Shown piece after piece: positions 2,734 to 46,222 of a stretch of 64,000 nt of DNA (positions are counted from its first letter, which is position 1; each line of letters opens with the position of its first letter). The notes beneath the pieces are model-generated. The model had not been told where the DNA came from, did no database searches, and saw only the letters and a list, made by a program, of their open reading frames with translations. Source of the stretch: an uncultured Gammaproteobacteria bacterium (GTDB taxonomy: Bacteria > Patescibacteriota > Microgenomatia > UBA1406 > HO2-37-13b); contig CAZTFB010000002.1 in the NCBI GenBank assembly GCA_964612595.1, forward strand, positions 70,663-134,662, written 5' to 3'. The position numbers were made by a program, and so were the translations under genes.

Positions 2734-4408
2734 AATCACCTTGTTGGCGTGACGTACATACATATCTGCTTATATCGACTTCTTGAGTTAAGGAAGTAGG
2801 ATATATGATTATAAACGTTTCATTAAACGTAGTATCGGCAGGCATCGGCGGAAAATAAAGCCTCCCATAATCTGCAACTCCAATACTTTCTCCAAAAAAA
2901 ACATTGTCTTTATAGCCTGGTACATATCGCTCCATCACCTCAGGATCGGCATAAAAATACATATATATATTCTTTTCTGGATGTTGCATGCGCTCCTCAC
3001 TGATCATTGAATAGATGGGTTGGTTACCGAATGGATATGTTTTAGGAAAATCAACAAATATACGCGATGCGTTGTTGTGTGCTACAAAAGCCATTACAAT
3101 AATTGCGATGACAACCCCGCCATATTTCATCCATCGCACATTTTTATCATCAGTAATAAAACGCGATGCAATCGCATGCAACATATACGCTATGGTTATA
3201 TAGACCATGGGCAGTGCAACAATCATACGAGAAAAATTCGGCGTTTCAGTTTCGTAGCCAATCGACATGAGCGATGTGGGAATGAATGCGATGAATAGCA
3301 ACAATATGCTTAGTTGTGCATTGTTTTTTTTAAAGCTAATCAAGGCATAGCCTAGACCAGCAAGAAACAGCCACATCGTTATATCGTCCAGTCCCTTCTG
3401 ATAAGGTGAGGTGTTCTCGTATGGTGGAAATGATGTGCCTTGTTTAATGACGCCGTTAACTGTATTAGTGTAATTGCGGTAAAATGACGCAGCTCTTTGT
3501 TCAAGGGTAAAATTTCTATTTGCTACCTCCTGTCCCCTCATGCGCATGCGTTGAAAATAAACCTCTGGATGCTGGTAAATAAAGGAGAGTAAGGGCGCCA
3601 GTGCGATAATAAATGCAACGAGCGCAATCAACATACCTCTTAATAGAGCTGCCCGTTTTTTCCCGTGATGAACAAGAAGCGATAGAACAAGAAAAATACC
3701 AACAGCCAACGGCACAACCCAATAGGTTGTATATATGTAGAAGCCCGCAGCTAAACCGAGTCCTAAGAAATAGGCATAGCGGGCTTTACGATATGTGTGA
3801 AATTGTATCGCTGCATAAAAAACAAGTACGACAAAAAGCGGTACAAGTGAGGCACGATACGCGAGGCGCTCCATCAGCATCTGCCAACTAGAAAAAGTAA
3901 AGAGGATACTGGTAAAAAATGCCACGAAGGGATGGATGTTCAAACGCGTGAGCATAATAAACAAAACCAGTGCTGTCATTACCCCAGCTGCTGCCCCTAC
4001 AATTTTCATAGCCATAAACTCATCGTGAATTACGCTGTCAACAAGGGCCGCAAGATGATAATAGAGTGGTTCCTTTGAGAAGTTTTCGTACAAAATATAT
4101 GCTTTTTTGGTGTCGACAACTTGCTGAACCTGCTGCGTATCTCGTGCGACGTCAAACCCATACATATCTTGTGGGATTGAGTCGATAGCGTAGAAATGAA
4201 ACAATACGCCTACGACAAGAAGTATGATGACGTATGTGAGCTTACTGTTGGATATAGAGCGAGGTGAGTGCTTTTCTTTTGGCACCAATAAATAATAACC
4301 AACAAGAACATTGAGGAATAGGGCAAGGATTGAGGGAAAGCCCCATTCAAACCCACGAATCCATACAACTTCGGCGAGCAAGAGCACCGACATCATTAAA
4401 AACTTCAT
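2708..4408 (-). CDS. polytopic membrane protein, GT-C-type (ArnT/PMT-like) glycosyltransferase candidate
   Basis: 566 aa with many hydrophobic helices in the N-terminal two thirds and a soluble C-terminal domain. Sits among glycosyltransferase genes; the family call is tentative. Confidence 0.5.
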   Translation of the reverse strand: MKFLMMSVLLLAEVVWIRGFEWGFPSILALFLNVLVGYYLLVPKEKHSPRSISNSKLTYVIILLVVGVLFHFYAIDSIPQDMYGFDVARDTQQVQQVVDTKKAYILYENFSKEPLYYHLAALVDSVIHDEFMAMKIVGAAAGVMTALVLFIMLTRLNIHPFVAFFTSILFTFSSWQMLMERLAYRASLVPLFVVLVFYAAIQFHTYRKARYAYFLGLGLAAGFYIYTTYWVVPLAVGIFLVLSLLVHHGKKRAALLRGMLIALVAFIIALAPLLSFIYQHPEVYFQRMRMRGQEVANRNFTLEQRAASFYRNYTNTVNGVIKQGTSFPPYENTSPYQKGLDDITMWLFLAGLGYALISFKKNNAQLSILLLFIAFIPTSLMSIGYETETPNFSRMIVALPMVYITIAYMLHAIASRFITDDKNVRWMKYGGVVIAIIVMAFVAHNNASRIFVDFPKTYPFGNQPIYSMISEERMQHPEKNIYMYFYADPEVMERYVPGYKDNVFFGESIGVADYGRLYFPPMPADTTFNETFIIIYPTSLTQEVDISRYVCTSRQQGDFTFATCSF

Positions 4409-10325: not shown

Positions 10326-10354
10326 AAGACCACAACCTGTCGAGGATCGTGCCC
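10326..10354 (+). repeat. imperfect hairpin element AAGACCACAACCTGTCGAGGATCGTGCCC
   Basis: 24/29 identical to 45578-45606. Both start immediately after a TAG stop. The left arm matches the perfect terminator hairpin at 19982-20018. Confidence 0.7.
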
Positions 10355-10360
10355 TTGTTT

Positions 10361-10399
10361 AGAAGAAAAGATCGAAGCCGGGCGGTTGTGCCGCCCGGC
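10361..10399 (-). terminator. rho-independent terminator of cassette ORF 1a
   Basis: Minus strand reads GCCGGGCGG-CACAA-CCGCCCGGC followed by TTCGATCTTTTCTTCT. Confidence 0.7.
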
Positions 10400-10426
10400 C
10401 TCTCTCGTTCCGCCGAGGCGCGGGGC

Positions 10427-10693
10427 TCAGTCTTGCGTCTCCAGCATGGGGAGATTGAATATCGTGTCGGCCCGAAGTTCGTATCCCTTGGCCATCTTCA
10501 CGACAGCCTCCAGATTGTCCGTCTCCGTGACGACGACGATCGCTTCCTTGACCGAGCTCGCTGCGACCCGCACGACGCCTTGCAGGCGCTGTACGGCCTG
10601 AGCAAAGGGACCGAATCGTTCCGAGATGTTGTTGAGGTTGGTCCCGGTCTTCAGGACGATGACCACGAATGGCATCATGCTGATGTTCAACAT
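10427..10693 (-). CDS. GC-rich cassette ORF 1a, small alpha/beta protein of unknown function (weak GYD-like pattern)
   Basis: 88 aa with strong GC3 bias, its own promoter and terminator. The MPFVVIVLKTG... pattern only loosely recalls GYD-domain proteins. Confidence 0.5.
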   Translation of the reverse strand: MLNISMMPFVVIVLKTGTNLNNISERFGPFAQAVQRLQGVVRVAASSVKEAIVVVTETDNLEAVVKMAKGYELRADTIFNLPMLETQD

Positions 10694-10789
10694 AGCGATT
10701 TTACCTGTGCCTTTCGGTTGAAACGAGAATTGTTGGGTGCTTTGTCAATCGAGTAATGCGCGAAACACGCACACTTGAAAGACAGGATC

Positions 10790-10818
10790 ATTATACTATA
10801 GGATAGCAAGGAAGTCAA
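10790..10818 (-). promoter_or_regulatory. sigma70-type promoter TTGACT-N17-TATAAT for cassette ORF 1a
   Basis: -35 at 10818-10813, exact 17-nt spacer, -10 at 10795-10790. Begins 9 nt after the stop of the RNase H fragment. Confidence 0.65.
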
Positions 10819-10827
10819 GTTCTGAAG

Positions 10828-10974
10828 CTATTTTCGCATCAATTCCGCAATATCAACCGCATCATTCACCAGCGCATCCGCAAGCTTATTCTTCTCCCGC
10901 AGAACGTGTGTATAGCTTACCGGAAGGCCCAATTCTTTTTCATACACTCTGATTTGATTAACGTATTCCTGAAT
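10828..10974 (-). pseudogene. duplicated 3' fragment of the RNase H gene
   Basis: 10851-10974 is 122/124 identical to 11531-11654. The fragment stays in frame and ends with a different tail (..NDAVDIAELMRK*). It has no 5' part. Confidence 0.85.
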
Positions 10975-18611: not shown

Positions 18612-19994
18612 TTGTATTATAAAGGAATGACGCCTAAGCGCTTAATTGTACTCGTCTTTTTATTGATTATTACGCTCGCCTTTTACTTTAAATCGATGCT
18701 GTACATTGATCCTGACCTAGGATGGCAGCTAAAAACAGGTGAAATAATTCTTTCAAAGGGTTTTCCGCGTACAGATCCTTTCTCATATACTATGTCTCAT
18801 TTTGCGTTTGTTCCGCATTCGTGGCTGACGGATGTTGTTTTCCACCATGTGTTCCAGCTCGCTGGACTATCGGGACTCGCATTTGTTACTAGCATTGCTC
18901 TCACAATCACTGTAGTAGTTATTTGCGGGGTTATATGGCAAACATGGATGTTTGTACCCGCTCTGTTGGTTGCTGTGCATTTAATGCCATATGCAGGGAT
19001 GCGCCCACAAACGTTTAGCTGGCTTTTTTTTGCGCTTCTGCTTCGAGTGCTCGTTGATAAAAAAGCCGAACATGTCTATGGGCGCTATTTACCCATATTG
19101 CTTTTTGTGTGGGCTCAGCTTCATGGTGGGTTTTTAATTGGCATAGTGCTATTAGCCATCTGGGCGTTTTTTGACCTCAAAAAGCGCGCCTTAATAGTAT
19201 TGTTCGCCACAGTCGCAACACTTGTGAATCCCTATGGGATCGCGCTGTGGCGCGAAGCACTAATGACATTTTTCTCGCTATCCACGCGGGCAAGCGTCAA
19301 TGAGTGGTCGCCAACGCTTGCGCGCCTTGATCTACGTCTTGGGCTTGTTATGCTCTTGCCCACATTCCTTATCGTTCGCTACCCTCGCGCATACTCGCCA
19401 TTCTTTAAACTTACATATGTCATACTCTTTCTCACCATGCTTTCTTCAAGCAAACTATTTCCGTTTTGGCTTATCATGGCAGGCTATACAATGATCATAG
19501 GCTTAACTACTCTTGAAAAAAGTACTGTGCAGATCAAAGGTGCAGCTAAACGCCTCAATACACTTCTATATGTTCTTTTTCTTCTTATTGCAATTAATGC
19601 AGCCGTTCTCATCATATCAACGTTTAAAACCTACAAAACTCTGGATGAAGATGTGTATTACCCGAAAAATGCTGTAATTTTCCTAAAAACACATCCGCCC
19701 CAAGGTAATATATTTGCCCCCTTCGGCTGGGGCGGTTACCTCATATGGAAACTCCCAGAAAAGAAGGTCTTTATCAGTGGACATATGCCACATTGGGAGC
19801 ATATTCTTGAAGATTATATTAAGATAATCAAGCTGGAAAGCCCTTTTGAGAAAATCACCACATCCTATAATATCTCAACGGTGCTTGTTCAAAAAAATAA
19901 AACAAACTTTGCTGCATTGACTACTTATCTTAAGAAAAATGGCTGGAAAACGATTTATGAAGGTGGCGTATCGGAGATATTAATAAGACCGTAA
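18612..19994 (+). CDS. polytopic membrane protein (possible O-antigen-ligase/GT-C-like)
   Basis: 460 aa with more than 10 hydrophobic helices and a soluble C-terminal domain. Start uncertain (TTG 18612 or ATG 18627). Confidence 0.45.
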   Translation: MYYKGMTPKRLIVLVFLLIITLAFYFKSMLYIDPDLGWQLKTGEIILSKGFPRTDPFSYTMSHFAFVPHSWLTDVVFHHVFQLAGLSGLAFVTSIALTITVVVICGVIWQTWMFVPALLVAVHLMPYAGMRPQTFSWLFFALLLRVLVDKKAEHVYGRYLPILLFVWAQLHGGFLIGIVLLAIWAFFDLKKRALIVLFATVATLVNPYGIALWREALMTFFSLSTRASVNEWSPTLARLDLRLGLVMLLPTFLIVRYPRAYSPFFKLTYVILFLTMLSSSKLFPFWLIMAGYTMIIGLTTLEKSTVQIKGAAKRLNTLLYVLFLLIAINAAVLIISTFKTYKTLDEDVYYPKNAVIFLKTHPPQGNIFAPFGWGGYLIWKLPEKKVFISGHMPHWEHILEDYIKIIKLESPFEKITTSYNISTVLVQKNKTNFAALTTYLKKNGWKTIYEGGVSEILIRP

Positions 19995-20018
19995 CCTGGC
20001 ACAGGTTACGGTCTTATT
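19982..20018. terminator. bidirectional stem-loop terminator (17-bp perfect stem)
   Basis: AATAAGACCGTAACCTG-GCA-CAGGTTACGGTCTTATT followed by TT. Contains the stop codon of the upstream gene. Its left arm resembles the elements at 10326 and 45578. Confidence 0.75.
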
Positions 20019-25931: not shown

Positions 25932-28043
25932 ATGAAAGGCACCTACGTTCCACCGGAAGAGGGACAAGGCAATCCGATCGAACAATTTACGGTCAATCTG
26001 ACTGCCTTAGCAAAGAAAAACAAACTCGACCCTGTTGTGGGTCGAGATAATGAGGTGCGACGCTTAATACAAATATTATCGCGTCGCACGAAAAACAACC
26101 CTGTGTTGCTTGGTGACCCTGGTGTGGGAAAAACCGCCATTATTGAAGGCCTCGCCCAACGCATTGTCGCTGGCGATATCCCCAACACACTCAAGCATAA
26201 AGAACTTCTATCAATAGACCTAACAGGGCTCGTCGCAGGCGCAGCTTTTCGCGGTGAATTTGAACAGCGACTAAAAGGTCTTCTAACCGAGCTCGAAAAA
26301 GCAGAAGGAAAATACATTATTTTTATCGACGAGCTCCACACAATCGTAGGCGCTGGATCTGCCCAAGGCTCCGCAGACGCCGGCAACATTCTAAAACCCG
26401 CGCTCGCCCGCGGAACCCTACACGCCATCGGTGCAACGACCATTCGTGAATACCGCCAATATATTGAAAAGGATCCAGCGCTTGAGCGCCGATTTCAACC
26501 TGTTATGGTTGATGAGCCCTCACCCGAAGATACGCTCACTATTCTCCGTGGCATTAAAGAAAAATATGAAACACATCACGGAATCAAAATTTCTGACGAT
26601 GCACTTATCGCTGCGGTCGACCTCTCCACACGCTATATTACCGACCGCTTTTTACCAGACAAAGCAATTGACCTCATCGATGAGGCAGCAGCAGGCTCCA
26701 GAATTGAAATAGATTCGATGCCGACCTCGCTTGATGAGATAAAGCGCAAGAAAGTTCAACTCGACATTGAACTTGCGGCGCTCAAAAAAGAACAAAATGT
26801 CGAGGAGCGCCGCGCAAAACTTGAGGCGGAGCGCACAGAGCTCGATGCAACATTCAAAGAACTTGAAACAAAATGGGAAGAAGAAAAACGCATTATCAGC
26901 GAGCTCCAAAGCTATCGCCTCCAGCTTGACCAGCTTAAATCTGAGCTCGAAATTGCAGAGCGCGATGCTGAACTCGAAAAAGCCGCTGAGCTCAAGTACA
27001 GCAAAATTCCAGCACTTGAAAAGAAAGTTTCTGAACTTGAAAAAGAATGGCAAAAAAAACCAGAAGCAGATCGCCTTCTCAAAGAACGTGTTACTGAAGA
27101 AGACATTGCACGCATCGTATCTCGCTGGACAAACATTCCAGCACAACGCCTTCTTTCTACCGAGTCAGAAAAACTAGCTAAACTTGAAGATGAGCTCAAA
27201 AATAGAGTCGTCGGCCAAGATCATGCCCTAACAAGACTTGCCCAAGCAATTCGACGATCCCGTGTTGGTCTGAGCGATGAAAATCGCCCCATAGGTTCAT
27301 TTCTATTCTTGGGCCCAACAGGTGTCGGAAAAACTGAAACAGCAAAAGCCCTTGCTGAAGCCCTATTTAATGATGAAAAAGCCCTTATTCGCATTGATAT
27401 GTCTGAATATCAAGAACCCCATACAATCGCGCGCCTCATCGGGGCCCCACCAGGCTATGTGGGATATGATGAAGGAGGCCAGCTAACTGAGGCCGTGAGG
27501 AGAAAACCATACTCTGTTATCCTCTTTGACGAAGTGGAAAAGGCACACCCACAGGTGTTCAATACGTTTTTGCAGATTCTTGATGATGGAAGACTCACTG
27601 ATGGAAAGGGCCGTACGGTTAACTTTAAAAATACAGTACTTATTTTAACCTCTAACTTGGGCTCACAATCGAAAAATATAATGGAAGAAGTCCGTCGCTT
27701 CTTTAAGCCTGAGTTCATAAATCGACTTGATGGGATTGTAGAATTTAATGCACTCGATGAGAAAATTATGAGTAGTATTATTGAGCTTCAGCTCAAAGAA
27801 ACAGAGGCGCGCCTCGCAAAAAACAGCCTGCAGGCAACCTTTACCGATGCGCTCAAAAAACATCTCCTCGCGGTCGGGTTTGACGATATGTACGGCGCCC
27901 GCCCGCTCAAGCGCATGATAAACGAGCTCATTCTTGATGAAATTGCACTGATGATTGTTGAAGGAAAGGTTCATGAAAAAGACAAGCTAACTGTTGATTT
28001 TAAGAATAATCGCGTTCACATTGAAAAAACTACTATAAACTAA
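25932..28043 (+). CDS. clpB: ATP-dependent chaperone ClpB (lacking the canonical N-terminal domain)
   Basis: Two AAA+ modules ([16 protein letters not shown]), a long coiled-coil middle domain, and the [13 protein letters not shown] motif only about 45 aa from the proposed ATG start. Confidence 0.9.
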
Positions 28044-28054
28044 TCCTGCTGTGC

Positions 28055-28083
28055 TTGACTACGCTATTAATATAGCCTATAAT
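28055..28083 (+). promoter_or_regulatory. sigma70-type promoter TTGACT-N17-TATAAT for cassette ORF 2
   Basis: Begins 12 nt after the clpB stop. Followed by AAGGAGG and ATG 28124. Confidence 0.65.
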
Positions 28084-28123
28084 ATTACCTTCACCGACCC
28101 TGTTCTAGCCCAAGGAGGCAAGG

Positions 28124-28507
28124 ATGAGCAGCTCAAAGCCGGTACCGATCTTGGTCTTGCGCCAGGTCAGAATCGTGACCTGGCTGTCCGGAAGTACTGA
28201 GCCCAGGAGGGCTCGGGTCGAAGGCCATGCTGATGAACTTCTCGAGCTCCTGGGGCAATCCAATGATGAGCTCGGGAGCACCTCAGCGCTCGTGGTGCAG
28301 GTGTCGGCACATGTTGTGCGAGTTTTACTGCATGACGGCTCACCAGTTGCCCGGTTCTCGGTCGATACCGAGCAAGCCGGCGCGACAATCGTCTTCGTCG
28401 ACAGCAAGGGATGGCTCCAGAGCCTTCTTGCCATCGGCGCGGAATCGATCAACCCCGAGGACTGGCCAAACAGCTGGGTTCGGACGGCCTTCAAGGCCGA
28501 AGACTGA
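28124..28507 (+). CDS. GC-rich cassette ORF 2, unknown function
   Basis: 127 aa with AAGGAGG 5 nt upstream and strong GC3 bias in this frame. The opposite-strand ORFs look like GC-rich artefacts. No recognisable family. Confidence 0.55.
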   Translation: MSSSKPVPILVLRQVRIVTWLSGSTEPRRARVEGHADELLELLGQSNDELGSTSALVVQVSAHVVRVLLHDGSPVARFSVDTEQAGATIVFVDSKGWLQSLLAIGAESINPEDWPNSWVRTAFKAED

Positions 28508-28525
28508 CGACCTCAAGTCGTCCAT

Positions 28526-28565
28526 GGCCCCGGTCCGCTTCGGCGGATGCGGGGCCTTTCTCATT
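28526..28565 (+). terminator. rho-independent terminator of cassette ORF 2
   Basis: GGCCCCG-G-TCCGC-TTCG-GCGGA-TG-CGGGGCC followed by TTTCTCATT. Confidence 0.75.
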
Positions 28566-28604
28566 CCCCAAAAATTCCTCTTTACCTCCTAAAAACCTGC
28601 TATA

Positions 28605-28943
28605 ATGGATATTCCAATGACACCAAAAGACATAACCCAGGATCAATTCGAGCAAGAAGTCGTTCAACATAAAGGCGTCGTTTTCGTTGACTTCCACGCA
28701 GAATGGTGTGGACCATGCAAAATGACCGAGCCTATTATCGAAGATCTCGCCACAAATTCGAGTTTCAAAGACAAGGTTAAGTTCGTCAAAGTCGATGTTG
28801 ACAAAAACCAAGACCTAGCCGGACAATACAGTGTTTTTTCCATTCCTACGTTCATCACCTTCAAAGATGGCGAACCCGTCAACCAGTTCTCTGGCGCGCG
28901 CGATCGAGGAGGTTTCGAGGCAGAGCTCAATAAATTTGTGTAG
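28605..28943 (+). CDS. trxA: thioredoxin
   Basis: 112 aa with the WCGPC active site. Confidence 0.9.
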   Translation: MDIPMTPKDITQDQFEQEVVQHKGVVFVDFHAEWCGPCKMTEPIIEDLATNSSFKDKVKFVKVDVDKNQDLAGQYSVFSIPTFITFKDGEPVNQFSGARDRGGFEAELNKFV

Positions 28944-28947
28944 TTTC

Positions 28948-29382
28948 TTATCTTGCATCAAACATTCTGACTGCTTTCCCATGCGCAATCTTTAGCTTAA
29001 TATGTGCCTTTCGTAGAATAAATAAACAAAATTCCGCAAGCCAACGCACAGAGGTAGATATAGGATTTTTTAACCCTTGCATCACCTTATCATCACTTAT
29101 CGGCAACTTTACACTGTTATACGTAGTAAATTGAGAATGGCCCGTTGATGCAACCCCTTCTTCTTCTACTTCTTGGGGCACCTCAATCTTTTCAGGTCTA
29201 GGCTCAACATAATGTTTAACTTCCGGCTCAGGCTCATGTTCGGTTACCTCATGAATCTCGATATGATCTTTTGAGACTTCTGGGGGGCGCATGGGTGAGA
29301 TTTTTTCTGGATTCCCATAGCTGATTTGTTGCGCTTGTACGCTTTGAATAAGATCGGAAATATCGGTATAATTTTGGGGCAT
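28948..29382 (-). CDS. hypothetical protein (acidic Pro/Glu-rich centre)
   Basis: 144-aa ORF 18 nt downstream of the 418-aa orphan. No recognisable domain. Confidence 0.35.
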   Translation of the reverse strand: MPQNYTDISDLIQSVQAQQISYGNPEKISPMRPPEVSKDHIEIHEVTEHEPEPEVKHYVEPRPEKIEVPQEVEEEGVASTGHSQFTTYNSVKLPISDDKVMQGLKNPISTSVRWLAEFCLFILRKAHIKLKIAHGKAVRMFDAR

Positions 29383-29399: not shown

Positions 29400-30656
29400 T
29401 TACGCGGCTTTAGCGATAGGCTTCTTACTCCTGTCAATACTCGGCTTCCTTCCCGCGTCATAATCCCGCTGACATAACTCACATATAGCACATGGACCGA
29501 TTTTAACTTTTTTAGCTCCACATCCACCTTTTCCAAACTCGCGGCAATCCTTGTCATCCTCCCATTTTGATGTGTCCCTCCACGCTTCTCTATCAATCGC
29601 CTGTTCCCCAAAAACGCTGTACATTGCAGCCATATGCGGCGACATATCACCAAGCAGGCCGATATACATGTTTGATGACTGAGTATCACATACAAGACTC
29701 CCATAGAAGAGTGGGGCGTCGTGTTGTCCGTAGTATTGCGCAATGTACGAACCTATATCTATGAGATTGCCATCTACTACAGGTGCAGCCATTTTAGTTG
29801 CTGCTTCATCCTGCTCATCTCTTAAAAGCGTAGCCTGTTCAAAGAGATAGTCGCGTGCCTGCTTCGCTGCCCTCGTTATTTCTGCATATCGAAATGGAAC
29901 TTCCTGTTTATCGACAGTGGCTAACTCTGACATTAGTCCAATGAAATGTTGGACATACTGACCAAGGTCTTGGCGCACACGAGCGGCAAATGCTTCTGAG
30001 GCGTCAACCTTATCTTGAGTTAAACCAAGTAGTTCGTATATGCGGCCATGGTCTGCGGAGCCACTGAAAGCCAATGGCCGCACGAGCATTTCTTCTGTAG
30101 TTTCTGGGGCAGATAAGTTACCGCTAAAACCTGCTGATTGTTGCATCTGATCGTACTCTTTTTGAGCTTTTCTAAATCCAACATCGTCGTGTCGATGCAT
30201 GATGTTCGTTTGGATAATACGGAAGCTGCCGTCTATGTTCGGAATCTTGCGGAACGTAAAAGTAAAGCGACGATCACCGTAACCTTCTTTCGACGGAGAA
30301 GAAAGGACTACCATTGAAACATTCTGGTCAAGTAACATTTTATATGCCTCTTGATAACCTATAACTTCATAGTGTTCTCGTGACCAATGTCCGTACTTTT
30401 CAATAGTCCGTTGCCACGATGATTGAAGATCGAGCCCTTGCATAACCCACGCTCCGTCTTGTCGTAGTTCACCCTCTAGCTCACTAAAGGGAACATAGCC
30501 TGCATGTTCATTAAGGAGGCCGATCATCTGTCCATCAAGAAACTGACTGTGGAAAGATTCGGGAAGCTCTCGAAGTCGAGCGACTTCTAAAGGAATGTCG
30601 TAAAGGCGATCCAACGAATGCCCCTCTTGGGGCTGTAATCTTTCAGCTTGTTGCAT
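29400..30656 (-). CDS. orphan protein with C-terminal cysteine cluster (zinc-ribbon-like)
   Basis: 418 aa. The C-terminus CREFGKGGCGAKKVKIGPCAICELC has a CxxxxxxC...CxxC pattern. Composition is Q/E/A/G/R-rich, and hand-counted GC of two 60-nt lines is 48-53%, above the flanks. Confidence 0.5.
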   Translation of the reverse strand: MQQAERLQPQEGHSLDRLYDIPLEVARLRELPESFHSQFLDGQMIGLLNEHAGYVPFSELEGELRQDGAWVMQGLDLQSSWQRTIEKYGHWSREHYEVIGYQEAYKMLLDQNVSMVVLSSPSKEGYGDRRFTFTFRKIPNIDGSFRIIQTNIMHRHDDVGFRKAQKEYDQMQQSAGFSGNLSAPETTEEMLVRPLAFSGSADHGRIYELLGLTQDKVDASEAFAARVRQDLGQYVQHFIGLMSELATVDKQEVPFRYAEITRAAKQARDYLFEQATLLRDEQDEAATKMAAPVVDGNLIDIGSYIAQYYGQHDAPLFYGSLVCDTQSSNMYIGLLGDMSPHMAAMYSVFGEQAIDREAWRDTSKWEDDKDCREFGKGGCGAKKVKIGPCAICELCQRDYDAGRKPSIDRSKKPIAKAA

Positions 30657-30749
30657 ATCCCTGCGCGGGGTAGGATTTGGAAGGTAGTCGGACTATAACC
30701 GTTGCGGCACAGCTCAGGAATTTCACCTGGATTCCCCGTTCCAAAACCG

Positions 30750-44464: not shown

Positions 44465-45577
44465 ATGAACAGAGACTTTCCTGTAAAACTAGCTCTCATT
44501 TCTGTATTGCTCTTTGAATTATTTCTGCTGTTTGGTAATCCGGTTAAAGCTCAGGTTGTATGTTCAAATAGGGATGATTGCCAGAATAAAATAAAAGAGT
44601 ATGAGTCAAAGCTCAGCGCCACGCGAGAAGCTAAAGGAAATTTAACCTCACAAATTCAGCTCACAAACACCAAGGTTGAGCTTGCACAAGTACGCATACA
44701 AAAAACCCAACACGATATTGAGGCAACTCAGAATGAAATTGCCCAATTAACTGGAAAGATTGAGCAGCTCAACACCACACTAGATCATTTGAGCGAAATT
44801 CTGCTGCAAAAAATTGTCGAAGGGTATAAAAACAAGGAAGCGAGCATTCTCGATATTCTGCTCTCCCCAGAGGCATCAACCCTCACAAATCAACTCAAAT
44901 ATATCCAGATAGCTCAAGAAAACGATCGTCTTCTTGCACTTCGTACTCAACAAGTAAAAGTAAATTTCTCTGAACAAAAAACGCTTCGCGAAGATAAAAA
45001 GGTTGATCTTGAAAAGCTCGAGAAAGATTTAGAGGCACAGAGAGTAGAGTTGAAGAACCAGATTGCTCAAAAAAACGCGCTTCTTGAGCAAACAAAGAGT
45101 GACGAAAAAAAATACCAACAATTGTTGAGTCAGGCATTGGCAGAATTTCAGGCGGTAAACAAAGCTATTGAGACAGGACAAAAAGTGGGTGAGGTTAAAA
45201 AGGGTGATCCAATAGCACTGATTGGCAATACAGGATATCCTCATTGCTCAACTGGAGCACACCTGCATCTTGAGGTGCGCAAGGGTGGCACATGGACAGA
45301 TCCAGGCGCATATTTGGGAAGCAGTTGGGATTGGCCAATTAGTCAACCTATTGAAATTACACAGGGGTATGGAGTGACGCCATGGTCATGGCGTTACTCA
45401 TATAGCGGAGGCATACATACAGGGTACGATATGGTGAGTAGGAGCAGTGAGGTGATACGTGCAGTAGCTGACGGCACCCTCTACTCATCCTCGCAGAATT
45501 GTAGCGGCTCGATCATAAAGATTAAATACATTGACCACGGGAACGACCTCATGAGCTTCTATCTGCATGTGCAATAG
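44465..45577 (+). CDS. M23-family peptidoglycan endopeptidase with N-terminal coiled coil
   Basis: Signal peptide, about 230 aa of coiled coil, and the GNTGYPHCSTGAHLHLEV M23 motif. Confidence 0.8.
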   Translation: MNRDFPVKLALISVLLFELFLLFGNPVKAQVVCSNRDDCQNKIKEYESKLSATREAKGNLTSQIQLTNTKVELAQVRIQKTQHDIEATQNEIAQLTGKIEQLNTTLDHLSEILLQKIVEGYKNKEASILDILLSPEASTLTNQLKYIQIAQENDRLLALRTQQVKVNFSEQKTLREDKKVDLEKLEKDLEAQRVELKNQIAQKNALLEQTKSDEKKYQQLLSQALAEFQAVNKAIETGQKVGEVKKGDPIALIGNTGYPHCSTGAHLHLEVRKGGTWTDPGAYLGSSWDWPISQPIEITQGYGVTPWSWRYSYSGGIHTGYDMVSRSSEVIRAVADGTLYSSSQNCSGSIIKIKYIDHGNDLMSFYLHVQ

Positions 45578-45606
45578 AAGACCGCAACCTCACGAGGTTC
45601 GTGGCC
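45578..45606 (+). repeat. imperfect hairpin element AAGACCGCAACCTCACGAGGTTCGTGGCC
   Basis: 24/29 identical to 10326-10354. Begins right after the TAG stop of the M23 gene. Confidence 0.7.
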
Positions 45607-45699
45607 TAATGAGAATGCGCCCTTCGATTATGAGCCGTAGCCCACAATCTCCAGGCGCTTATCCTCGCACAGGCAAGAGCTCAGGCCTCGACCGTCATG

Positions 45700-45972
45700 T
45701 CAGAATCCGCCAAGAATGAGCGTGTCGGGCATCGGCCCCCTGCAGACCCGTTGGGTCGTGAACGTTGCCTTAACCCACCCTCGGCCCGGATACTCCACGA
45801 GGATAGAGCATTCGCCGTTCGCTTCTTTTTGGAAGCATTGCGAGTAGAACCGCTCAAAGTCTTCGTTGCCGTTTGGGTCGCTAATCGTCACGTCGACCAG
45901 GCCACCATTGGGCCCGCTGGACCACCAAACGTTTCCAGCACGACAGACAAACGGATTCGACCGTGTGTACAT
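45700..45972 (-). CDS. GC-rich cassette ORF 3, unknown function
   Basis: 90 aa with GGAGG 6 nt upstream, its own promoter, and 4 Cys. No recognisable family. The plus-strand ORF 45697-46071 is judged an artefact. Confidence 0.5.
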   Translation of the reverse strand: MYTRSNPFVCRAGNVWWSSGPNGGLVDVTISDPNGNEDFERFYSQCFQKEANGECSILVEYPGRGWVKATFTTQRVCRGPMPDTLILGGF

Positions 45973-46035
45973 CGAACTACCTCCATCACGAGCTCGCCGG
46001 ATGCGAAAAAAGTGCGCGTATGCACTTTGGTGCGA

Positions 46036-46064
46036 ATTATACTACCAGAGAGCTCTGAGATCAA
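46036..46064 (-). promoter_or_regulatory. sigma70-type promoter TTGATC-N17-TATAAT for cassette ORF 3
   Basis: -35 at 46064-46059, exact 17-nt spacer, -10 at 46041-46036. Lies 85 nt downstream of the tRNA-Ala 3' end. Confidence 0.6.
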
Positions 46065-46148
46065 TTTCTAGGCTGGGCAAGGGTCTGAAAAAAGTTAAAT
46101 CGTGTTTGGATTTGTGAGACGCTCTATATTACCCCCGAGGTTGTTGTG

Positions 46149-46222
46149 TGGACCGGAGGGGACTTGAACCCCTGACCCCCGCACTGCCAGCGCGATGCTC
46201 TAGCCAACTGAGCTACCGGCCC
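46149..46222 (-). tRNA. tRNA-Ala (anticodon GGC)
   Basis: Hand-folded: acceptor GGGCCGG/CCGGTCC with the G3:U70 alanine identity pair, D arm GCTC/GAGC, anticodon loop CTGGCAG, T arm AGGGG-TTCAAGT-CCCCT. No encoded CCA. Confidence 0.85.

Follow-up and report, generated by a model that had tools for sequence, protein, structure and literature searches.

Between clpB and trxA in a 64-kb stretch of bacterial DNA (64,000 nucleotides of contig CAZTFB010000002.1, hereafter the window) lies a short GC-rich cassette with a promoter-like sequence, a single open reading frame (ORF) for a 127-aa orphan protein, ORF127, and a bipartite hairpin element at its 3' end. We consider it probable that this is an autonomous monocistronic cassette of Woesebacteria (Microgenomates, Candidate Phyla Radiation, CPR): an ancient insertion between the two genes, one occupant of a hotspot whose cassettes share their ends, and a gene whose deviant GC content is maintained. 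As for the host, the best named match of TrxA is from Candidatus Woesebacteria, and the best ClpB match among the species representatives listed is from the Microgenomates group. An earlier note, made from the letters of this DNA, had proposed a single self-contained module of foreign composition inserted between clpB and trxA. The module is present as such and its insertion is borne out by an empty site in a relative (L090); the insertion is ancient, and the module is but one occupant of a cassette hotspot.

The variability of the clpB-trxA interval among related genomes makes it a hotspot, holding zero to three cassettes. L090 has none, and the window and L002 have one each. Two are found in L088 (ORF126, then an ORF of the GF family) and in L084 (a GF ORF, then an operon of ORF120 and GF). 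Three are found in L083/L001 (GF, then GF with a small ORF, then ORF127) and in L089 (GF and GF, then a zinc-ribbon ORF, then GF), the latter without ORF127. Every cassette has its GC-rich ORF (0.53-0.65 GC) between a near-consensus promoter and the common 3' end, and the ORF types (ORF127, the 59-80-aa GF family and zinc-ribbon ORFs) are interchangeable between these ends. Around the -10, the promoter module is near-identical in front of different ORFs: it reads '...AATATAGCCTATAATATTACC' in the window and '...AATAATAGCCTATAATATTAC' before the zinc-ribbon ORF of L089. Terminator-to-promoter junctions separate the cassettes in L083, L088, L089 and L084, and elements are more alike within an array than between arrays, with cassettes A and B of L083 sharing their terminator and cassettes 1 and 2 of L089 sharing hairpin 1. 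Members of the GF family are 22-38% identical to the reference sequence, and the family is confined to the clade, with nine database proteins, none annotated.

The interval upstream of clpB varies as well. Between the ABC ATPase gene and clpB lie, in L084, a GC-rich zinc-ribbon cassette that matches the 3' element weakly (2790-3105) and, in L090, a 284-aa gene (1797-2651); the window has only about 118 nt at this place. The intergenic region between the ABC ATPase gene and clpB is thus a second variable site. In the multi-cassette arrays about 230 nt of AT-rich spacer stand before the last cassette (L088 4400-4640; L089 4470-4575; L083 2940-2720, minus strand). These spacers contain repeats that may be operators or other binding sites: TCGAT(G/A)CACGATA(A/G)C occurs in L089 and L088, and L083/L001 have two copies of ACGCGTAGTACTACATATCCA.

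The shared 3' end is a conserved RNA structure. Eleven of the 12 array cassettes finish with a TGA, hairpin 1, a C(A/G)(C/T)G linker, a CCCCGG...CCGGGG terminator and a T-tract. In five cassettes the conserved TGA lies 11-56 nt past the real stop codon of the ORF, which makes it part of a non-coding element. Compensatory double changes are present in 6 of the 18 pairs over both hairpins, with 96.8% of cells paired. Half of the six pairs of hairpin 1 show such double changes, and its stem occurs as GACGAC, GACAGC, GATAGC and GATGC. None of 500 shuffles reached the covariation score, and slid controls were near zero. A covariance model, R1, built from seven copies of the element misses none of the 13 cassette ends of the relatives' arrays, five unseen ones among them scoring 50-61 bits, and finds exactly one copy in the window. 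The terminator core hardly varies, UUCG loop and bulge included, even between genomes with saturated synonymous sites, and this exceeds the conservation that termination alone usually requires. The hairpin GACGAC-CTCAA-GTCGTC overlapping the stop codon and the strong two-tier terminator (28526-28565) that had been described from the letters were both located here, the former with the GA of the TGA in its stem and the latter with a UUCG loop and a tail behind it (Table 1). A 19-mer of the terminator also occurs in a viral contig (L085; 66% GC, actinophage-like); a single match equals the chance expectation, and we set it aside.

Arrays of this kind call integrons to mind. Integron cassettes and clusters of attC sites lacking integron integrases (CALINs) form arrays of variable content, made up of small, diverse ORFs, many of them orphans, with a conserved hairpin element behind each. 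The cassettes are generally promoterless, the attC sites carry inverse core sites, and in integrons an intI tyrosine recombinase gene lies adjacent. An integron-like or other site-specific recombinase system, with the hairpin element as an attC-like recombination site, would fit the small diverse ORFs that each precede the same kind of hairpin element, the variable number and order of cassettes between relatives, the greater likeness of elements within than across arrays (L083 A/B, L089 1/2) and a 9-nt direct repeat at the array borders. We nevertheless judge such a system unlikely. The element contains no GTTRRRY/RYYYAAC (R'/R'') cores, there is no GTT at all in 28499-28565, and the only GTTRRRY in L002 falls inside the ORF. 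It consists of two separate hairpins, not one imperfect palindrome, and reads as a transcript end, with a T-tract following the predicted terminator hairpin. Each cassette has its own promoter, and a look through the genes called within about 5 kb of the site in seven genomes, short of an exhaustive scan of the whole window, turned up no recombinase.

Returning to the autonomous cassette, the comparison with relatives dates its arrival. In L090 the clpB TGA is followed by 10 nt (tgttttatca), GCTATAAT and trxA, giving a clpB-trxA gap of 28 nt; this is the empty site whose presence in a relative had been anticipated as a check. With a distant Microgenomates sequence as its root, the ClpB tree places L090 as sister to (L084,(L089,(window,L088))), and ClpB of the window is 85-95% identical to that of L084 and L088-L090. 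ORF127 homologs in L084, L088, the window, L001/L083 and L002 always stand directly after clpB and/or before trxA; L089 has no homolog. The pyrimidine-rich spacer between terminator and trxA promoter is absent from the L090 empty site. Copies of a 9-nt direct repeat flank the cassette (Table 1) and the empty site holds a single related copy, ATCAGCT; the repeat is possibly a target duplication from one ancestral event, and possibly due to chance. No terminal inverted repeats, the hallmark of miniature inverted-repeat transposable elements and insertion sequences, were found at the cassette boundaries. The simplest history comprises one insertion in the ancestor of the clade, or one loss in L090, then mainly vertical inheritance with a loss in L089. 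The divergence of ORF127 keeps pace with host genes: ORF127 is 70% identical in the window and L001, and the neighbouring 418-aa host protein 66%. The cassette is therefore an ancient insertion, not a recent one.

The composition of the cassette is deviant and has stayed so. The window as a whole has 42.2% GC (standard deviation 0.042 in sliding 300-nt windows) and exceeds 0.54 GC in only three islands, at about 10.2-10.75, 28.05-28.65 and 45.45-46.05 kb. In 200-nt windows, 28100-28600 has 0.59-0.61 GC and the flanks 0.36-0.49; the cassette stands at 0.60 against 0.42-0.46 in the surrounding genes. By codon position, ORF127 has GC1/2/3 of 0.63/0.46/0.70, with G at 40% of first positions; the GC3 of host genes is 0.40-0.50. 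The GC-rich module, its AT-richer flanks and the high GC3, all asserted from the letters, thus stand after the window profile and the codon-position count. Grounds for giving up the foreign module had been named in advance as well, namely an ORF conserved at this position with native composition. The position is conserved in at least five lineages; the composition is non-native in every one, with GC3 of 0.67-0.78 in all five ORF127 homologs against 0.32-0.50 in host genes. Fourfold sites of the window and L084 copies are 75% different (dS about 2), and promoters and spacers within the arrays are AT-rich and host-like.

A 60% GC gene in a 42% GC genome would ordinarily be read as a classical small genomic islet, recently imported from a GC-rich donor and not yet ameliorated, and this reading gains something from the GC-rich type of amino-acid usage (R well above K, few I, N and Y) and from the empty site in L090. 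We regard it as improbable. The same site is occupied in five lineages with ClpB identities of 89-95%, ORF127 diverges in step with host genes, and promoter and spacers have the native AT-rich composition. Synonymous sites between the window and L084 are saturated while GC3 is still about 0.70, and no homolog was found outside the clade among 5.8 billion clusters, 1.84 billion representatives, IMG/VR, and phage or plasmid genomes. Since GC3 was kept despite this saturation and no homolog from a GC-rich lineage exists in these collections, the deviant GC is not the fading mark of a recent import. We infer instead that the GC-richness is actively maintained, and part of it appears to reflect selection for strongly folded mRNA. 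That the gene has kept its 60% GC while the genome stands at 42% and synonymous sites have turned over completely runs counter to the routine reading of deviant GC as recent transfer.

ORF127 is a genuine, fast-evolving protein-coding gene, as its third-position bias, in-frame indels, dN/dS and conserved start signals attest. The five homologs at this locus are 52-72% identical. Pairing the window, L001 and L002 with one another gives 28/22/46, 29/18/43 and 33/27/56 differences at codon positions 1/2/3, the second position being the most conserved. These three copies have no indel over 384 nt, and indels in the more distant L084 homolog are all in frame. The dN/dS of ORF127 is 0.20-0.28 (Nei-Gojobori, all computable pairs among the five homologs) against 0.03-0.08 for clpB, trxA and a neighbouring 144-aa gene, so that ORF127 evolves about 5-10 times faster than its neighbours by this measure; window and L084 are 54% identical in ORF127 and 89% in ClpB. 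The start codon and Shine-Dalgarno sequence are conserved across homologs (L001, L002, L084, L088), the latter as AAGGAG, GGAG or GGAGG in L002, L088, L001 and L084. The claim that only the plus frame is coding therefore holds, on both codon-position differences and dN/dS. An antisense ORF of 129 aa lacks expression signals, differs in length among homologs and shows a reversed conservation of positions 1 and 2; we rejected it as a shadow ORF.

Automatic annotation misses the gene. In contigs of the same species (L091-L096) the gene caller replaces ORF127 by an ORF of 49 aa and an antisense one of 74 aa; at the L088 cassette (3910-4386) an antisense 158-aa ORF is listed, and in L001 (1134-1505) an ORF antisense to trxA. 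Such wrong calls in GC-rich cassettes hide these families from protein databases, and the rarity of ORF127 there is partly an annotation artefact. Orphan cassette families would thus be systematically under-represented in databases owing to gene-caller errors. A word-indexed search of 5.8 billion clusters returned two ORF127 homologs and an exhaustive hidden Markov model (HMM) search of 1.84 billion representatives one further small homolog; a fifth, ORF126 of L088, was found solely by reading DNA. The exhaustive search also matched a 3941-aa protein through Ig-like repeats (E = 6e-7), which we judged compositional or spurious.

That the 127-aa protein resembles nothing recognised, as the earlier note had it, is confirmed by profile searches: Pfam, NCBIfam, PHROGs, PADLOC and PDB gave no match, and neither the GF family nor the two other islands' ORFs matched anything in these libraries. 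ORF127 has no hydrophobic segment, and its product looks like a small, soluble, cytoplasmic alpha/beta protein. It is most likely an accessory factor, in conflict or host interaction, and not a housekeeping protein. A rival reading is a toxin-antitoxin or anti-phage defence module, made up of ORF127 alone or with a GF partner. In its favour, the genes are small, evolve fast, are restricted to the lineage, lie in a variable hotspot with their own promoter, and form a tight two-gene operon in L084 (ORF120 and GF68). We think such a module about as improbable as a recent import. PADLOC, Pfam, NCBIfam and PHROGs hold no match, and the partners are not fixed: ORF127 is without GF in the window and L002 and has a cassette of its own in L088, and GF occurs without ORF127 in L089. 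Nor are the two related by profile comparison; treating ORF127 and GF as one superfamily was rejected at an hhalign probability of 0.6%.

A structured RNA gene would be typical of a GC-rich island in an AT-rich genome, and the island could in principle be primarily a non-coding RNA gene with an incidental ORF. Both strands of the cassette fold better than shuffles (z = -4.3 and -3.5), and the coding region is over-structured in all homologs: the five ORF127 coding sequences give z = -1.9 to -4.5 against dinucleotide shuffles and z = -3.4, -2.1, -1.6, -3.9 and -2.4 against synonymous-codon shuffles, where host controls average about -0.7 and the two other islands of the window give -0.7 and +0.1. 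The 3' element is a covariation-supported RNA structure, and the protein has no known relatives. We still hold a purely RNA gene to be very improbable, given the three-base periodicity with position 2 most conserved, the constraint expressed in dN/dS, indels that are all in frame, and the conserved Shine-Dalgarno sequence and start codon. Covariation by RNAalifold is about zero within the coding region. Rfam gave nothing at the gathering threshold and no match even at E <= 10 that would support the RNA gene, the best permissive hit being an archaeal small nucleolar RNA model (E = 0.04) with no structure, and ARAGORN found no tRNA or tmRNA in the cassette region. A dual role, as protein gene and as structured mRNA or source of a 3'-untranslated region (UTR)-derived RNA, is possible.

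An assembly or binning artefact that joined a foreign GC-rich fragment into a CPR contig, suggested by the sharp composition change only, is already refuted: 27900-28700 is identical in six contigs assembled independently from different sequencing runs, so the island is not an assembly chimera, the same architecture recurs with diverged sequence in four other lineages, and the junctions fall within the native promoter and the native trxA promoter.

The expression signals of the autonomous cassette are compiled with its other features in Table 1. Its promoter ranks top of six promoter-like sites in 2 kb, where shuffles yield 2.4, and comparable promoters precede every homologous cassette in the relatives; activity as a near-consensus sigma-70-type promoter is predicted. 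All sequence features listed in the earlier note are present at, or within 1-2 nt of, the coordinates it gave. TTGACT, 17 nt and TATAAT at 28055-28083 stood as described, with the gap after the clpB stop (TAA, 28041-28043) corrected from 12 to 11 nt, and AAGGAGG and the 127-aa ORF were where it had put them. The Shine-Dalgarno/start region 28113-28127 (AGGAGGCAAGGATGA) is 80% complementary to the pyrimidine tract 28576-28590 (TCCTCTTTACCTCCT), a pairing that would matter for read-through transcripts only.

Table 1 Features of the clpB-trxA interval in the window (positions within the 64,000 nucleotides)
Feature	Position	Strand	Basis or remark
clpB, left flanking host gene, 703 aa	25932..28043	+	Pfam AAA_2, AAA_lid_9, ClpB_D2-small
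Left direct repeat AATCCTGCT	28042..28050	+	Overlaps clpB stop; 8/9 nt match with right copy
Cassette promoter (predicted): -35 TTGACT 28055-28060, 17-nt spacer, -10 TATAAT 28078-28083	28055..28083	+	11/12 consensus positions
Shine-Dalgarno AAGGAGG, 5 nt upstream of ATG	28112..28118	+	Direct reading
ORF127, soluble orphan protein, 127 aa	28124..28507	+	ATG 28124, TGA 28505-28507
Bipartite 3' element (TGA, hairpin 1, CATG linker, terminator hairpin 2, U-rich tail)	28499..28565	+	Covariance model R1, 89 bits
Hairpin 1, GACGAC-CTCAA-GTCGTC, 28506-28511 paired with 28517-28522	28506..28522	+	6-bp stem opens with GA of TGA stop
Hairpin 2, two-tier terminator with UUCG loop, then U-rich CUUUCUCAUU	28527..28555	+	Predicted
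Pyrimidine-rich conserved spacer TCCCCAAAAATTCCTCTTTACCTCCTA, terminator to trxA promoter	28566..28592	+	Alignment; right junctions of L088, L089
Right direct repeat AAACCTGCT	28593..28601	+	Repeat search
trxA extended -10 promoter TGcTATAAT	28598..28606	+	Direct reading; ends 10 nt before ATG at 28617
trxA, right flanking host gene, 108 aa from MTPKDITQ	28617..28943	+	Pfam Thioredoxin, E = 2e-29

Anatomy, coding status, conservation, the empty site, variable arrays and RNA covariation are thus demonstrated; the activity of the promoter, the route of recombination, what causes the high GC and the part the protein plays are inferred. Taken together, these features suggest how the cassette might work and how it might have come about. 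A near-consensus sigma-70-type promoter would drive a transcript with a short leader and a strong Shine-Dalgarno sequence from which the 127-aa orphan protein is made, and transcription would end at the small TGA-holding hairpin directly followed by the UUCG-capped intrinsic terminator. The unit would have inserted into an originally tight clpB-trxA junction, with the 9-nt direct repeat around it, in the ancestor of the Woesebacteria clade, and would afterwards have been inherited mostly vertically. The likeliest route for changes in content would be recombination between the repeated terminator-to-promoter junctions, in the manner of the promoter-early stem-loops (PeSLs) of phages.

PeSLs are the closest mechanistic analogue. 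In the hyperplastic regions of T4-type phages, ORFans are bounded by repeated motifs of stem-loop and promoter through which modules are shuffled (Arbiol et al. 2010, PMC2839356), and recombination of these motifs yields indels, replacements and mini-circles (PMC2839356). As there, a hypervariable region holds small ORFans set between repeated junctions of a stable stem-loop terminator and a consensus sigma-70 promoter, and what distinguishes close relatives is that ORFs between junctions have been inserted, deleted or replaced. The cassettes differ in residing on a bacterial chromosome instead of a T4-type phage, in their two-hairpin unit with a conserved TGA, in ORFs much more GC-rich than the genome, and in that recombination is deduced here from array content. 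Phage morons of the HK97 gp15 type (defined in PMC3594210) likewise have their own sigma-70 promoter and intrinsic terminator around a single small ORF, which the cassette shares at the sequence level, together with a GC content unlike the neighbours and the character of extra DNA between genes that are adjacent in a relative, here L090. Unlike morons, it lies in a CPR chromosome among housekeeping genes and not in a phage or prophage, has a long vertical inheritance with maintained composition, and belongs to arrays that share a specific bipartite 3' element. No sign of a phage context was found: the cassette has no PHROG matches, and the family is absent from IMG/VR and phage genomes.

The fixed location has a parallel of its own. 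The minimal mobile elements of Neisseria (Saunders & Snyder) reportedly place different small gene cassettes at a fixed intergenic site in different strains; exchange is said to proceed, presumably, by homologous recombination through flanking-gene homology after transformation, and common promoter or terminator ends are reportedly absent. A fixed site between two conserved genes with varying small cassettes is common to both systems, and the common promoter and terminator ends set the Woesebacteria cassettes apart.

Several points weigh against an ancient, autonomous and shuffling cassette. Promoter, terminator and translation are deduced from sequence and conservation alone, and the shuffling is known from its outcome, arrays of zero to three cassettes with shuffled ORFs. 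AlphaFold2 models of ORF127 built from three and then four sequences had predicted local distance difference test (pLDDT) scores of 36 and 42 and were unusable. Within the coding region the RNAalifold covariation term was +0.5, that is, no net covariation, which leaves a specific conserved intragenic fold unproven. The single genome with an empty site fits an ancestral insertion and a precise loss in L090 alike. The closest species representatives among the ClpB matches listed, L003 and L004, have about 30% GC and no clpB-trxA synteny, and for this reason are unusable as an empty-site test. Trees are not fully congruent, the window being nearest to L088 in ClpB and nearer to L001 and L002 in ORF127, so that some lateral exchange or rate variation may be involved.

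The genomes of CPR bacteria are tiny and rich in unannotated genes, and little is known of the ways in which these bacteria acquire and exchange accessory functions. The locus described here is a fixed hotspot between two stress genes, with self-sufficient cassettes, interchangeable ORFs and shared regulatory ends, and it places a moron- or PeSL-like pattern in a cellular chromosome instead of a phage. Going further, we raise, as a tentative and rather doubtful proposal, that Woesebacteria may carry an undescribed integrase-independent cassette system, in which autonomous GC-rich units of promoter, ORF, TGA hairpin and terminator build up and shuffle at fixed hotspots, the 3' element acts as a recombination or mobilisation site or gives rise to 3'-UTR-derived regulatory RNAs, and GC content and mRNA folding are under selection. 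If this were true, the selected folding could serve transcript stability, given a reduced RNA-decay or chaperone repertoire.

The surroundings of the cassette are ordinary chromosome: an ABC ATPase gene, clpB, trxA, two orphan genes behind an adenosylcobalamin (AdoCbl) riboswitch, and genes for Cob(I)alamin adenosyltransferase, a class II ribonucleotide reductase (RNR) and NrdR. The start of trxA is probably the ATG at 28617, and the resulting 108-aa TrxA matches the form recorded for relatives; the mechanically listed start, an ATG at 28605, shares positions with the -10 box. With 10 nt between the -10 box and the start at 28617, the trxA mRNA would be leaderless or nearly so. The extended -10 motif is invariant in L001, L002, L088 and L089, and the trxA promoter at the empty site of L090 reads AGCTATAAT, without the TG. 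The AdoCbl-II riboswitch (30674-30747, minus strand, 50.8 bits) lies directly upstream of the two orphan genes, 29400-30656 (418 aa) and 28948-29382 (144 aa), which are clade-specific and lie downstream of the Cob(I)alamin adenosyltransferase, class II RNR and NrdR genes. The 418-aa protein bears C-terminal CxxC motifs. The pair is probably B12-related, for example in uptake or salvage.

Two other GC-rich islands occur in the window. The second (10326-10830) contains a minus-strand ORF of 88 aa (10693 to 10427; GC3 0.79) that ends ...CAA GAC TGA, a strong terminator hairpin (GGCCGGGCGG/CCGCCCGGCT, about 10377-10401) and a minus-strand promoter sequence, TTGACT-17 nt-TATAAT, from 10818 to 10790; it has no family match, and R1 finds no copy of the 3' element in it. 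The third (45577-46050) contains a 90-aa minus-strand ORF (45972 to 45700; GC3 0.68) beside tRNA-Ala (46148-46222). Upstream of it, an M23 peptidase gene (44465-45577) ends ...FYLHVQ* inside an apparent second M23 domain, and the third island may have truncated this gene.

The cassette 3' end (28499-28529) had also been likened to a sequence near 45.6 kb. That sequence, GAAGACCGCAACCTCACGAGGTTCGTGGCC, exists at 45577-45606, but it is a copy of a host terminator palindrome that R1 misses. We rejected a link of the cassette end to it and to the motif at 10326, which is another such copy also unseen by R1; the likeness is superficial. The palindrome family, AAGACCG(T/C)AACCT...AGGTT.CGGTCTT, has three copies in the window. 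Those at 10326-10355 and 45577-45606 are imperfect and stand directly after stop codons, with 'GAAGACC...' at the left edges of the islands; the one at 19982-20018 is a perfect 17-bp predicted bidirectional terminator (z = -7.8) with the TAA of the upstream gene in its stem.

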